A stretch of 64,000 nt of DNA, from assembly GCF_003790525.1 (NCBI RefSeq), contig NZ_CP033635.1, one strand, 5' to 3'. Below the pieces are notes generated by a model. That model ran no database searches and was not told where the DNA came from. It saw nothing but the letters and a program-made list of their open reading frames with translations. The translations under genes were made by a program, and so were the position numbers. This DNA is from Escherichia coli. Lineage in GTDB: Bacteria; Pseudomonadota; Gammaproteobacteria; Enterobacterales; Enterobacteriaceae. Within the stretch, counting starts at the first letter, position 1, and every line of letters starts with the position of its first letter. Shown here piece by piece: positions 431 through 24,192 of the stretch.

Positions 431-2581
431 TTAACGCCGCCGACGGCGTGGGGATTTCGTTTTTTCTTTCTTTTTAACTATACCTTCAGGGACTTCCGGT
501 TGCTCTATCGGAAATACCGGTAATGCATCCAGTAGCCGCTTGCCGTAGTTTTTGGTGAGCAAGCGTTTATCGTAAATCACCACTTCGCCCCAGCAACCGT
601 GGCTTCGAATCAGTCGCCCAACCTGCTGAATCAGGTTAAACGAGGCGCTCGGCAGGCTTTGCACCTCAAACGGATAGCGGTTGAGGCTTTTCAGCCATTC
701 CCCTTCGGTGATCACCACGGGGCTGTCGATGGGCGGAAAAGCGATTTTGTGGATATGCACCTGGCTGAGCAGATCGCCTTTCAGATCAAGCCCTTCGGCA
801 AATGACTGTAAGCCCACCAGCACGCTGCGCTCACCGTTGGCGACGCGTTTGCGGTGCAGTTCAACTAAACGGTAACGCGGCTGATCGCCCTGCACCAGCA
901 ACATCAGACGTAAATCCGTCACATAGTCGAGAAAGCGCTGCATCGCCCGTCCGCTGGCAAACAGTACCAACATACCGAGATGTTTTTTGCTCTCCACCTG
1001 CTTACGGAAAAAGGCCGCCATTTCGGCAATATGCTGCTCTTCGTTGTCGAGGGAAGGCTCAACGCGCATCCGGGGAATAACAATTTTGCCCTGTTCGCAG
1101 TGGTTAAAGGGGGAATCCAGCGCCACAAAACGGTCGCCCGCTTTCTCTTTCAGCCCACTCATCTCCTGCAAACGCGAAAAACTGTTCAGCGAACGCAAGG
1201 TTGCGGAGGTAACAATAATGTGCGGAATACTGCGCCACAGCAGCCTTTCCAGTTGGTCGCTAACACGAATACCCACACAGTGAAACCAGAGATGCAGCTG
1301 CCCTTCGCGCTCTTCCCGCGTCGCCCATTTGGTCACCGGCGCACCGGAAGATTGCGCCAGAGACGCCAGCCGCCAGAGTTTGCTTTGCGCCTCGAACATC
1401 CCCAACGCGCGGTTCATCTGCAAAATCAACCGATGCAGGCGTACAATGTCATGGCTGCCGGTTTTCTCACTTAAATCGTTAAGAAATAACTCCGCCAGGC
1501 CACGCAGCATCTCGGTGAGTTTTGCCAGCCGCTGGCAGATCTCCAGTACTTCATCAGGCAGTTCGCCCATCGCAAAACGGTGCTCTGCCTCCTGCCCGGC
1601 AGGCATGTAGAGGTTGAGAATGTTGTTTAACGAGGCGATAAGCTCATACAACTCTTCACAATGGGCATTCAAACGTTCAGGGATCGCCAGCGGCGGGATG
1701 GTCTTCGGGCGAAACTGCTCCATGCAGGTAGCGACCAGTTTCGTGAACAAGTCCAGCTGTAGCCGATACCACGGTGCGGTGATTTCTGCACTCATCTCCA
1801 GCGCATCCCGCGCCACATCCGGCAGGTGATGACCTTCGTCCAGCACCAGCAGTAAATTTTTCGGGTCAGGCAATACGGCTTCGCTTTCCATCGCCGCCAT
1901 CACCAGCGCATGGTTTGCCACCACCACTTCCGCTTCCTGAATCTCCCGACGAGCGACAAAAAACGGGCATTCGCGATAGTAATAACAGTTGCGGTTAAGG
2001 CAACTGGCCTTGTCGGTGCTCAAACGACGCCAGAGATCGTCATCTATAGCGATATCAGTATGATCACGCAGACCATCCCATTTATAAGTGTCGAGATCGC
2101 CCTTCAGCTTCGCACAACGTTTTTGTTCTTCCTGATTGTTCGGCGTCAGTTCGTCGTCAAGAAACGCCAGCAAATCCTGTTGCGTGGGTTCAGTGCTGGC
2201 GAGCGCCGTCAGATTACGCGGACAAACGTAGCGCCCACGCCCAAAAGCGGCAGTGAATTTAAGATCGGGAATGATCTTTTTCAGCAGCGGTAAATCTTTA
2301 CTGTAGATCTGATCCTGCAATGCCACGTTGGCGGTACTCACCACCAGCGTTTTTTGCTCTTCGCGGGCAATGGCGATGCCAGGGATCAAATAGGAGAGCG
2401 TTTTCCCAACGCCAGTGGGGGCTTCAATCGCCAGATGCCGCCCTTCTTCTCCGGCCAGCGTTTTGGCGACGTCCGCAATCATCTGCCGCTGCGGCGCACG
2501 GGGAATAAAGTCGGGGATCTGTTCCTGAAGCGCCTTATACCAGGCGGCAATTTGCGCTTTAAGCGCGGCGGTTAATGCCAT
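431..2581 (-). CDS. dinG: ATP-dependent DNA helicase DinG (716 aa)
   Basis: ORF track 716 aa, MALTAALKAQIAAWYKALQEQ...; length and sequence match recalled DinG; LexA box upstream. Confidence 0.97.
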   Translation of the reverse strand: MALTAALKAQIAAWYKALQEQIPDFIPRAPQRQMIADVAKTLAGEEGRHLAIEAPTGVGKTLSYLIPGIAIAREEQKTLVVSTANVALQDQIYSKDLPLLKKIIPDLKFTAAFGRGRYVCPRNLTALASTEPTQQDLLAFLDDELTPNNQEEQKRCAKLKGDLDTYKWDGLRDHTDIAIDDDLWRRLSTDKASCLNRNCYYYRECPFFVARREIQEAEVVVANHALVMAAMESEAVLPDPKNLLLVLDEGHHLPDVARDALEMSAEITAPWYRLQLDLFTKLVATCMEQFRPKTIPPLAIPERLNAHCEELYELIASLNNILNLYMPAGQEAEHRFAMGELPDEVLEICQRLAKLTEMLRGLAELFLNDLSEKTGSHDIVRLHRLILQMNRALGMFEAQSKLWRLASLAQSSGAPVTKWATREEREGQLHLWFHCVGIRVSDQLERLLWRSIPHIIVTSATLRSLNSFSRLQEMSGLKEKAGDRFVALDSPFNHCEQGKIVIPRMRVEPSLDNEEQHIAEMAAFFRKQVESKKHLGMLVLFASGRAMQRFLDYVTDLRLMLLVQGDQPRYRLVELHRKRVANGERSVLVGLQSFAEGLDLKGDLLSQVHIHKIAFPPIDSPVVITEGEWLKSLNRYPFEVQSLPSASFNLIQQVGRLIRSHGCWGEVVIYDKRLLTKNYGKRLLDALPVFPIEQPEVPEGIVKKKEKTKSPRRRRR

Positions 2582-19160: not shown

Positions 19161-20129
<969 letters not shown>

Positions 20130-20130
20130 C

Positions 20131-20159
20131 ACGAAGCCGGAAGAATATTCCGGCTTCGT
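20131..20159. terminator. Perfect 11-bp-stem hairpin between convergent ybhK and uvrB (candidate bidirectional terminator)
   Basis: acgaagccgga-agaatat-tccggcttcgt. Confidence 0.4.
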
Positions 20160-20166
20160 CATCTTG

Positions 20167-22188
20167 TCACGACGCGGCAATAAACAGCTCACGCAGCTGA
20201 TGCAACTGGTCACGAATTTGCGCCGCTTCTTCGAACTCCAGATTCTGCGCGTGTTGCATCATCAACCCTTCCAGTTCATGGATCTTCTGCTGCAACGCTT
20301 TAGGCGACATATCCATCGGCACATTATCTGGCTCAACAATCGGGCGCGATTTTCCTCTGCCCTTCGCTTTGGTTTTGGCAATGTTCTGCCCCAGCGCCAG
20401 GATATCGACCACTTTCTTGTTCAAGCCTTGCGGCGTAATGCCGTGTTCCTCGTTGTACTTCTGCTGTTTCTCGCGGCGACGTTCGGTTTCGCCAATCGCT
20501 TTCGCCATTGATGGGGTGATCTTATCGCCGTAGAGAATCGCTTTACCGTTAACGTTACGTGCCGCACGACCAATGGTCTGGATCAACGAACGTTCGGAAC
20601 GCAGGAAGCCTTCTTTGTCAGCGTCGAGGATCGCCACCAGCGACACTTCCGGCATATCCAGACCTTCGCGCAGTAAGTTGATCCCTACCAATACGTCGAA
20701 CTCACCCAGACGCAAGTCGCGGATAATCTCCATACGTTCGACGGTGTCGATATCTGAGTGAAGATAACGCACGCGCTCACCGTGTTCTTCGAGATATTCA
20801 GTGAGATCTTCCGCCATCCGCTTGGTCAGAGTTGTAACCAGTACGCGTTCGTTAATTGCCGCTCGCTGACGAATCTCCGATAGAAGATCATCGACCTGTG
20901 TCGCTACCGGACGCACTTCAATAATCGGGTCAAGTAAGCCTGTTGGACGCACCACCTGATCCACCACATCGCCGCCGGATTTTTCCAGCTCGTAATTACC
21001 CGGCGTCGCCGAAACATAGATGGTTTGCGGCGCTAATGCTTCGAACTCTTCAAATTTCAGCGGACGGTTATCCAGCGCTGATGGCAGGCGGAAGCCGTAC
21101 TCCACCAGCGTCTCTTTACGCGCCCGGTCACCGCGATACATGCCGCCAATTTGCGGAATGGTAACGTGAGATTCATCGACGACCAGCAGCCCATCGGCAG
21201 GCAGGTAATCAAACAGCGTCGGCGGTGGCTCACCCGGTCCACGACCGGAGAGGAAGCGCGAGTAGTTTTCAATCCCCGAACAGTAGCCCAGCTCGTTCAT
21301 CATCTCCAGATCAAACTGGGTACGCTGGGTCAGCCGCTGCTCTTCCAGCAGTTTGTTGTTTTCCAACAGCACCTTGCGTCTGGCAGCCAGTTCTTCTTTA
21401 ATTTCTTCCATCGCCTGCACAATGCGCTCGCGCGGTGTGACGTAGTGCGTTTTCGGGTAGATGGTAAAACGTGGAATAGTGGAAACAATCTGCCCGGTGA
21501 GCGGATCAAATAACGACAATCGTTCCACTTCCTCGTCAAACAGTTCCACGCGAAGTGCAATGTCATCCGATTCTGCCGGGAAGATGTCAATCACCTCCCC
21601 ACGAACGCGGAAAGTACCGCGCTGGAAGGCTTGATCATTACGAGCGTATTGCAGCTCCGCCAGTCGACGCAGGATCGCGCGCTGATCGATAATCATACCG
21701 ACCGTAAGATGGAGCATCATCTTGAGATATAAATCAGGATCGCCCAGACCATAAATCGCGGAAACCGATGCCACCACAACCACATCACGCCGCTCCAGCA
21801 TCGCTTTGGTGGCGGACAAACGCATCTGCTCGATATGTTCGTTTACCGAGGCATCTTTCTCAATGAAGGTGTCGGAACTCGGTACATAGGCTTCCGGCTG
21901 ATAATAGTCGTAGTAGGAGACGAAATACTCCACCGCGTTTTCCGGGAAGAATTCTTTCATTTCGCCATACAACTGGGCCGCCAGCGTTTTGTTGGGCGCA
22001 AGTACCATGGTAGGGCGCTGAAGGTCAGCAATGACATTGGCAATGGTGAAGGTTTTCCCGGAGCCAGTCACGCCAAGTAACGTCTGGTGCGCCAGGCCAT
22101 CTTCCAGCCCCTCTTCGAGACGTCGAATCGCCTCTGGCTGATCGCCAGAAGGTTTAAAAGCGGAATTCAGTTTGAACGGTTTACTCAT
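20167..22188 (-). CDS. uvrB: Excinuclease ABC subunit B UvrB (673 aa)
   Basis: ORF track 673 aa, [28 protein letters not shown]..., Walker A GVTGSGKT. Confidence 0.97.
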
Positions 22189-22264
22189 GAGTCGCTACCT
22201 GAAGGAGTTGGGCGGGCAGGTATGTAATTTTACTCGTCGTACTTAATTATGCCAACAAATTATA

Positions 22265-22280
22265 CTGGATAAAAAAACAG
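22265..22280 (-). promoter_or_regulatory. LexA box of the uvrB promoter (CTGTTTTTTTATCCAG)
   Basis: ctggataaaaaaacag on the top strand, about 80 nt upstream of uvrB ATG, next to TATAAT-like sequence. Confidence 0.65.
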
Positions 22281-22584
22281 TTTCTCACCATAATATTTCT
22301 GTTACAGCGTAAACTCCGCTGTCAATCATGAGCAAAATTTACTCTGTGGCGAGATAAAACTCCGGCCTTACCGGGTTATCCCCAAAGCAACGGCTTTTTT
22401 AACATTTGTCAAGATGATTGATGACAGTTTTATGGCAAGAGATGCCTGTTCAGTGACTGCCATTGCAATTATCTAACCTGTTAAAAAATAAAAAATATTT
22501 CTTTGAGCCGTCTTTAACGCCAATTCGCGTGCAAGCCGCGTATTCTCTCGCTTGCCTCGTGTTTTCTAACTCTAATACACATGG

Positions 22585-22608
22585 TTATCCACAGGAATAG
22601 TGGATAAC
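22585..22608. promoter_or_regulatory. Pair of inverted DnaA-box-like 9-mers (TTATCCACA / GTGGATAAC) in the distal uvrB promoter region
   Basis: ttatccaca ggaata gtggataac. Confidence 0.45.
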
Positions 22609-22766
22609 TGTCTGCAGCCCCTATCCCCCGCCGCCTGGGCAATTCCCACATTCACCGCATGATGCGGAGGTAAAATTTTTTTCGTGATTTTTTTAGAATT
22701 TAATTGGTTAAATTGCAGTCAATCGAAGACGCGATCTCGCTCGCAATTTAACCAAGTACAGGATGA

Positions 22767-23444
22767 CTACATTAAGGCAAGATTGATGTACTTTCCGGTT
22801 GCCGCATTTTCTGGATTTTCTGCAAGCCAGGGAATTTCGCCCAGCAGCGGAGCGGGAATCATGCGGGTGAGCGTGGTCATATATTCAGCGTGACGTTTTC
22901 CCGGAGGCGTGACATCATTCGCCACCCAACCCGCCAGAGTCAGTCCGGCGTGTTGTATTGCCTGTGCCGTCAACATCGCGTGATTAATACAGCCGAGTTT
23001 CACACCAACTACCAGTATCACCGGCAGTTGTTCCTGTGTTACCCAATCCGCAAAAGTGAAAGTGTCAGAAAGCGGCGTAAACCAGCCGCCAGCACCTTCC
23101 ACTAACACCCAGTCAGCCTGTTGTTCAAGCGCGCGTAATCCGGCGCTCATTACCAATGATTCTATCGGCCTGCCCTCTTGTGCGCTGATGATGTGCGGCG
23201 AAGTGGGTTCTGCGAAGGTGTAAGGATTTACCGTTGCGTAATCCAGCTGCAGGCTGCTGTTGCGCTGTAACGCCAGCGCGTCGCTATTACGTAAGCCTTC
23301 CGGGATCTTTTCGCTGCCAGAGGCGACCGGTTTATAACCTGCCGTCCGGTAGCCTACTGCCTTTGCGGCTTGTAAAAGTGCACAACTGGCGACGGTTTTC
23401 CCCACTTCGGTATCCGTTCCGGTGACAAAATAACGTTTACTCAC
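22767..23444 (-). CDS. bioD: Dethiobiotin synthetase BioD (225 aa, GTG start)
   Basis: (M)[27 protein letters not shown]...; GTG start overlapping bioC end. Confidence 0.94.
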
Positions 23445-24192
23445 GAGCAATCACTCCCAAAAAAAGATGATACGTCAGAGGATATCGCCCCTGTTTTTGT
23501 GGCCAGGCCAGTTGCAATCGCTGCAACTGCGAACGCGTTAATATCCGCGGGTCGCGCCCTTCATGAAGATGCGTGGCACCGATGCCTTTCAGCGAACGCA
23601 TGGCACTGAGCGCATCATCAAACCACAGCGTGATGGGCTGAATATGATGTTGATAATGCAGGCCGTTCAGCGACTGTTCGATTTCATCTGGCGGTAAAAA
23701 GCGATTAGCATGCGGGCGCTCGTCCACCGCCTGCCACGCCTGATGTAATTCAGGGAGCGATCCCTGCACCAGCGTGGTAAACGCGACCACGCCTCCGGGG
23801 CGCACCACCCTGTATAGCTCGCGGAGTGCCGTGGATAAATTACCGCACCACTGTACCGCGAGATTGCTCCATGCAAGATCGAAGGTTGCAGTCGCTAACG
23901 GCAGGGATTCGATATCTCCCGCCAGATAATGGTCTGCGGCATCCTTCTGGCGTGCCTGAACAAGCATTGGCGGAGAGAGATCTAACGCCGTCACCTGCGC
24001 GTGACGTTCCCGCCAGTGGCGGCTCATCCAGCCAGGTCCACAACCCGCATCCAGTACGTGGGTGTATTTACGCTGTGGGAGCATTGCCAGTAAGACGTCA
24101 GCACTCTGGCGCTGTAGATCCGCATGTTGCTCATAGTGCGCGGCTGCCCGACCAAATGCCGCTGCAATGGCTTGTTTATTAACCGTTGTCAT
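23437..24192 (-). CDS. bioC: Malonyl-ACP O-methyltransferase BioC (251 aa)
   Basis: [29 protein letters not shown]..., SAM-binding LDAGCGPG; start at the internal ATG of the track ORF. Confidence 0.94.

Follow-up and report, generated by a model that had tools for sequence, protein, structure and literature searches.

The window analysed here is a 64,000-nt stretch of Escherichia coli DNA, in which the biotin operon and the excision-repair gene uvrB are read from the minus strand in the order bioB-bioF-bioC-bioD, a 578-bp intergenic region and uvrB. As listed in Table 1, this intergenic region carries a LexA (SOS) box with promoter-like hexamers on the uvrB side and a cluster of DnaA boxes on the bioD side, with further DnaA-like 9-mers in between. 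A 701-nt stretch around these features was 100% identical to E. coli SMS-3-5 and was found at 95-100% identity in 5423 of the 5426 complete E. coli genomes, with the annotation bioD / uvrB. The alignment with K-12 MG1655 was gap-free at 99% identity. Within it, window positions 22495..22613, which cover the DARS1 core described below and 78 nt of its downstream flank, were 100% identical (alignment A1 columns 188-306), and one SNP (C in the window, G in K-12) was located 7 nt upstream of box I.

Table 1. Features of the bioD-uvrB region, in window coordinates.
Feature	Position	Strand	Description and basis
uvrB CDS, 673 aa	20167..22188	-	ORF list; RefSeq annotation of identical E. coli DNA
Promoter-like TTGGCA-17-TAAAAT	22255..22227	-	Fits uvrB P1; promoter scan
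Sigma-70-like promoter GTGAGA-18-TATAAT	22288..22259	-	Fits uvrB P2; promoter scan
LexA (SOS) box AACTGTTTTTTTATCCAGTA	22263..22282	-	20-mer identical to the published uvrB SOS box (PMC6015884)
Distal DnaA-like box TTATCCCCA	22376..22384	+	One mismatch; oriented like boxes II and III; 224 nt from box I start
Block TTGACAAATGTTAAAAAA	22395..22412	-	Invariant in nine aligned Enterobacteriaceae sequences (alignment A4 columns 200-215)
Weak DnaA-like 9-mer TTTTTAACA	22396..22404	+	Inside block 22395..22412
Flank downstream of box III, ~50-bp DARS1 'regulatory region'	22523..22572	-	Approximate bounds; 100% identical to K-12
DARS1 box III TAATACACA	22573..22581	+	One mismatch; box II orientation, 3 bp apart
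DARS1 box II TTATCCACA	22585..22593	+	Perfect consensus; DnaA-box6 of Wurihan et al.
DARS1 box I TTATCCACT	22599..22607	-	One mismatch; opposed to box II, 5 bp apart
bioD	22767..23450	-	Last gene of the bioBFCD operon, upstream neighbour; ORF list and annotation

Two copies of the bioD-uvrB intergenic region were met on records classed as plasmids in the E. coli genome collection. The Rfam search returned zero families at E-values up to 1 in 20000..24000, and the tRNA scan of the bioD-uvrB region was empty. Directly after the bioD stop codon, an inverted repeat at 22707..22755 (minus strand) has a 14-bp stem, GGUUAAAUUGC...GCAAUUUAACC, and a folding z-score of -2.86. It is the same in K-12, and the stem has no T-run directly after it.

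The LexA core has the form CTG-N10-CAG (CTGTTTTTTTATCCAG, 22265..22280, minus strand). Nine of its ten central bases are A or T, and it fits a 16-bp palindrome with an AT-rich centre. In the promoter scan the hexamers GTGAGA and TATAAT bracket the box upstream of uvrB, and LexA-box1 was published between the -35 and -10 of uvrBp2 (PMC6015884). As a bare pattern, CTGT-N8-CCAG is no rarity in the window (3 matches versus 1.23 expected); the weight of the LexA box comes from its position, its identity with the published site and its conservation, and not from pattern rarity. Footprinting and mutation data have been published for the identical box (PMC6015884). Judged by this identity and position, the box is the known uvrB SOS operator at P2, so that the sequence-only reading, which had set a LexA box beside the proximal uvrB promoter, was right on this point. 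By mapping the published primer 71 and the -280 numbering (PMC6015884), the P1 start would lie at about 22221.

The -35 hexamer of P2 (22283..22288, minus strand) reads GTGAGA in the window versus GTGATG in K-12, which is a common E. coli polymorphism. Over the 76-bp P1/P2 region, most E. coli genomes differ from the window by 2 nt while the LexA box is unchanged. A weak DnaA-like 9-mer, TTATCCAGT, overlaps the LexA box at 22264..22272.

On the bioD side, the sequence-only reading had noticed two head-to-head DnaA 9-mers about 300 nt from the LexA box and nearer to bioD than to uvrB. Both 9-mers are present, and these distances agree with our measurements: 305 nt edge to edge separate the pair from the LexA box, and it lies 159 nt away from the stop codon of bioD but about 397 nt away from the ATG of uvrB. 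The inventory of DnaA sites was nevertheless incomplete, since the third box, TAATACACA, had been missed. Scored against the DnaA box consensus TTATNCACA, boxes I, II and III have 1, 0 and 1 mismatches, respectively, and box II is the sole perfect match in the 64 kb. The gaps are 5 bp between boxes I and II (22594..22598) and 3 bp between boxes II and III (22582..22584).

This arrangement agrees with published descriptions of the DnaA-reactivating sequence DARS1. DARS1 is located upstream of uvrB, is bound by DnaA in ChIP-seq, and comprises three DnaA boxes, of which I and II are opposed at a distance of 5 bp and II has the full consensus. A review states that the box spacing of DARS1 and DARS2 is equal, and the ChIP-seq table names cTAATACACAtggTTATCCACAg, that is boxes III and II together, as the DARS1 'double DnaA box' (PMC11317965). 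At our locus the number and orientation of the boxes, the 5-bp and 3-bp gaps, the location between bioD and uvrB and the identity with K-12 were all found. From sequence and geometry, the three boxes are the DARS1 core, and the pair seen earlier is two-thirds of it.

Could such motif matches be functionless coincidences? The commonness of the bare CTGT-N8-CCAG pattern given above is the one observation that speaks for chance. For the DnaA boxes, 300 first-order Markov sequences of 64 kb yielded zero inverted pairs with at most one mismatch and zero three-box arrangements with at most 5 mismatches. Moreover, the core is near-invariant in 5423 E. coli genomes and conserved across several orders, and an experimental literature exists on the exact sequence. 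We therefore give the chance explanation no credence.

Another reading starts from the shape of the pair. The two 9-mers converge across the 5-bp gap; viewed as a palindrome, they form 9-bp arms around a 7-bp spacer, and GTGGATAAC at 22600..22608 (plus strand) carries TTATCCACT on the minus strand. Such an inverted repeat might form an RNA hairpin and act as an intrinsic terminator for the bio operon, and our scan did flag, on the minus strand, GTTATCCAC-TATTCCT-GTGGATAAC with CATGTGTATT after it. Its folding is, however, unremarkable, with a z-score of -1.33 and 18 of 200 shuffled sequences folding at least as well. The stem is invariant in 40 sequences with zero compensatory changes, which is the pattern of a protein site and not of an RNA. 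Furthermore, box III is equally conserved although it lies outside the hairpin, and the element is kept where bioD was undetected upstream (bioD was seen in 15 of the 80 loci, some flanks being too short). A bio operon terminator was thus rejected on folding and on the invariant stem, and we regard it as extremely improbable.

Beyond box III, the DARS1 core continues into a flank that, according to the review, enhances ADP release in vitro. Inside this ~50-bp flank, 36-40 nt after box III, a GGCTT motif (22533..22537, minus strand) is conserved across orders: in 40 sequences from several of these, its G76 and T80 (alignment A3 columns 76-80) reach at least 90% conservation. Support for an RNA structure at the GGCTT motif was absent. 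A hairpin after box III (GCAAGC...GCTTGC, A3 columns 58-63 and 77-82) was also considered and rejected: RNAalifold predicted none, pairing was 55.8% versus 54.1% in shuffles, and there was no excess of covariation.

The conservation of the core was assessed at two depths. Within the species, 5423 of the 5424 E. coli genomes carrying the 47-bp core have it at 99% identity or more. For the wider comparison, 80 uvrB loci from species-representative genomes were collected, and the arrangement box I-5 bp-box II-3 bp-box III was scored upstream of uvrB. The three-box architecture was found in 19 of 20 Enterobacterales with 2-3 total mismatches; the exception, a Pantoea symbiont of Nezara viridula (L017), is without the core and without CTG-N10-CAG. 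At 2-5 mismatches it also occurs upstream of uvrB in Pasteurellaceae, Aeromonas, Aliivibrio and Shewanella. A more distant core, about 1.7-2.0 kb upstream of uvrB, was seen in Colwellia, Pseudoalteromonas, Rheinheimera, Lacimicrobium and Bowmanella. When at most four mismatches in total are allowed, the arrangement is present in the 19 Enterobacterales, in Pasteurellaceae, Aeromonas, Aliivibrio and Shewanella, and in several genera of Alteromonadales. The remaining gammaproteobacteria scored 7-12 mismatches, which is background. With distances to the uvrB ATG between about 315 and about 1970 nt, the core itself is invariant, and its orientation relative to uvrB is constant in nearly all taxa examined. 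The DnaA boxes noticed earlier are therefore conserved in orthologous regions. According to a review, DARS-like sequences have been reported at the same location for Vibrio cholerae, so that part at least of the broad conservation was known before.

Some neighbours of the core outside E. coli were recorded as well. In Pseudoalteromonas (L043), a 459-aa ORF at 625..2004, MATE-efflux-like as judged by eye only, stands between uvrB and the core, with its stop codon overlapping the start of uvrB; the core lies about 400 nt upstream of the ORF and ~1.8 kb from uvrB. A tRNA-Asn (GTT) gene on the strand opposite to uvrB occurs within a few hundred nt of the core in Aeromonas (L025 1793..1868). Such genes also stand near the core, again opposite to uvrB, in a gammaproteobacterial MAG (L030 1770..1845), Aliivibrio (L044 1448..1523), Haemophilus (L026 1472..1547) and Shewanella (L040 94..661, five copies). 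The E. coli window has no such tRNA-Asn gene.

The LexA box has a narrower distribution. In 19 of the 20 Enterobacterales loci, CTG-N10-CAG precedes the uvrB ATG by 51-143 nt. Within 250 nt of uvrB it was absent from the other sampled orders, with the exception of one match in Neptunomonas (L045, -220). Because the LexA box is confined to Enterobacterales and the core is present in several orders, the two are independent and separable modules; on this comparative evidence, they are adjacent to each other in Enterobacterales, and the DnaA-box core is the older partner of uvrB. The idea that LexA and DnaA sites are combined in one control region is thus weakened: both are indeed present in E. 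coli, but the core is kept in orders without CTG-N10-CAG within 250 nt. The region is almost certainly made up of two separate and already characterised elements, namely the uvrB SOS operator and the DARS1/uvrB P3 cluster, and no feature of the sequence speaks against this reading.

How the DnaA boxes bear on uvrB transcription has been described for K-12. uvrB has three promoters, and uvrBp3 'completely overlaps' DARS1, the boxes of which were numbered DnaA-box5, 6 and 7 (Wurihan et al. 2018, PMC6015884). In the same work DnaA and LexA footprints were shown at the uvrB region, a -567..-280 fragment containing uvrBp3 drove lacZ, and a TG-to-CA change in box6 raised uvrBp3-lacZ 5.9-fold, so that DnaA represses P3 (PMC6015884). 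We mapped the mutagenic primer CCACTATTCCCATGGATAACCATG to 22585..22593, and box6 is thus the perfect box II. Mapping of primer 71 set -280 at about window position 22501, which puts the DARS1 core at about -352..-386 and within the -567..-280 fragment. The DnaA boxes therefore do lie inside the mapped uvrBp3 fragment. On the uvrB strand, the promoter scan of 22560..22620 gave no sigma-70-like site at 9/12 or better, and the P3 hexamer candidates picked by eye were weak. The earlier proposal of multi-promoter regulation of uvrB accordingly stands as far as three promoters, LexA at P2 and DnaA repression of P3 are concerned, although the pair had not been recognised as DARS1.

It might then be argued that the DnaA boxes serve P3 alone, as a transcriptional operator, and that DnaA and LexA jointly tune the multi-promoter uvrB gene. 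The repression of uvrBp3 by DnaA, its derepression by the box II mutation (PMC6015884) and the nearly constant orientation of the core relative to uvrB would agree with this. Several observations do not. The same I-II inversion with the 5-bp and 3-bp gaps is found at DARS2, although DARS2 does not serve as a promoter of uvrB; published ADP release requires just a 70-bp DNA fragment and DnaA; and the core is unchanged over the whole range of distances to the uvrB ATG, including Pseudoalteromonas, where the intervening ORF removes it to about 1.8 kb. The main documented role of DARS1 is the regeneration of ATP-DnaA for replication initiation and not uvrB control. An operator-only function is therefore very unlikely, and DARS1 with an overlapping P3 is the reading retained.

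We also looked between the core and the LexA box, where the distal DnaA-like box TTATCCCCA is located. With box I as the anchor of 41 sequences, DnaA-like 9-mers oriented like boxes II and III clustered at offsets 202-207 and 221-227; the E. coli members of these clusters are TTTTTAACA and TTATCCCCA. TTATCCCCA is retained in 17 of 19 Enterobacterales, and outside Enterobacteriaceae the flanks are not alignable. At offsets 198-233, a distal box was present in 18 of 23 representative genera from at least five gammaproteobacterial groups, while the largest count among 200 permuted control motifs was 9. The distance from the distal box to the core is fixed at about 200-225 bp, whereas the distance to uvrB varies. 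Within E. coli, 5375 of 5421 genomes have block 22370..22415 unchanged, and polymorphism is seen in the spacer 22420..22500. By sequence, the invariant TTGACA (22407..22412) is a perfect -35 hexamer; it was considered as a promoter element and rejected, as an acceptable -10 at 16-19 bp was missing by eye in all Enterobacteriaceae sequences.

The published DnaA ChIP-seq data also lead to this site. The summit listed as 813331 ('DARS1', PMC11317965) maps to window position 22383, inside TTATCCCCA; it sits ~200 bp uvrB-ward of the core and away from the double box to which it was assigned. The footnote of Table 1 in that paper gives NC_000913.2 as the reference (PMC11317965). The DARS2 rows match NC_000913.3 positions, as checked on our DARS2 locus (L002). 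The oriC row appears to follow NC_000913.3 too. The table entry 813331 may be a misprint.

TTATCCCCA probably corresponds to one of the sites that Wurihan et al. named 'potential DnaA-box2-4' (PMC6015884), and the -279..-172 deletion built by these authors spans block 22395..22412 (PMC6015884). Searching the literature for TTATCCCCA and TGGGGATAA retrieved unrelated primer matches only. The positional conservation of the distal box, as it appears from our alignments, may be new. Tentatively, and at less than even chance, DARS1 could extend over a conserved module of about 240 bp, made up of the core, GGCTT and one or two distal boxes, and so be larger than the 101-bp in-vitro element. The distal box could loop back onto the core or, by analogy with the accessory boxes of DARS2, give ATP-DnaA feedback. 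For researchers working on DARS1, it offers a concrete site to mutate.

From publications on the identical K-12 sequence, the following course of events may be proposed for the locus. A LexA dimer on CTG-N10-CAG, between the -35 and -10 of P2 and just upstream of P1, would block RNA polymerase; upon DNA damage, RecA-stimulated self-cleavage of LexA would lift the block. At the core, ADP-DnaA would occupy box II first, as published for the identical K-12 sequence. The DnaA on box II would then recruit the box I protomer through a head-to-head AAA+ contact for which Gln208 is needed, and the box III protomer through a head-to-tail contact. ADP would be released from the box I and box II protomers in a Gln208-dependent manner; the nucleotide-free DnaA would depart and rebind ATP, by which an active initiator for oriC would be restored. 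Because P3 is overlapped by the DARS1 boxes, DnaA bound there would also repress this weak distal promoter.

For the identical K-12 sequence, the published outcomes of ADP-release, core-deletion, LexA-footprint and operator-mutation experiments are all supportive. ADP release, the rise in ATP-DnaA, and LexA binding and derepression would be expected at this locus from the literature on identical K-12 DNA, while our own analysis provides the K-12 sequence identity, the box geometry and the conservation. The uvrB SOS box, the three promoters, the DnaA control of P3 and DARS1 are already known (Wurihan 2018, Sugiyama 2019, ChIP-seq 2024). The value of the present work is hence a correct annotation of a stretch that links nucleotide-excision repair to replication-initiator control; the comparative result is of modest use, and the conservation of the distal box is a modest lead.

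Compared with known systems, the locus is closest to DARS1 of E. coli K-12, with the same location, boxes, orientations and spacings and with 100% identity over the core and 78 nt of flank; the differences, including the one SNP upstream of box I, are not material. The LexA part likewise corresponds to the uvrB P2 SOS operator of the E. coli SOS regulon, having the same 20-mer in the same slot between the P2 -35 and -10; the two differ in the -35 hexamer, which is GTGATG as published for K-12 and GTGAGA in the window. DARS2 of K-12 (mutH-rppH intergenic region, L002 636..670) shares the order of an inverted box I, a 5-bp gap, box II, a 3-bp gap and box III, but its core boxes are weaker than those of DARS1. 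In addition, DARS2 depends on a ~400-bp regulatory region with sites for IHF and Fis, whereas DARS1 is active on naked DNA with only a ~50-bp flank and, unlike DARS2, also serves as a promoter region (uvrB P3). The dnaA, mioC and nrdA promoters and datA use the same 9-mer consensus as DARS1, and the tandem boxes II-III of DARS1 with their 3-bp gap match the 'double DnaA box' preferred in vivo (PMC11317965). However, the dnaA, mioC, nrdA and datA sites are without the inverted box I and its 5-bp gap, the feature that is tied to ADP release, and datA drives ATP hydrolysis, the reaction opposite to that of DARS1.
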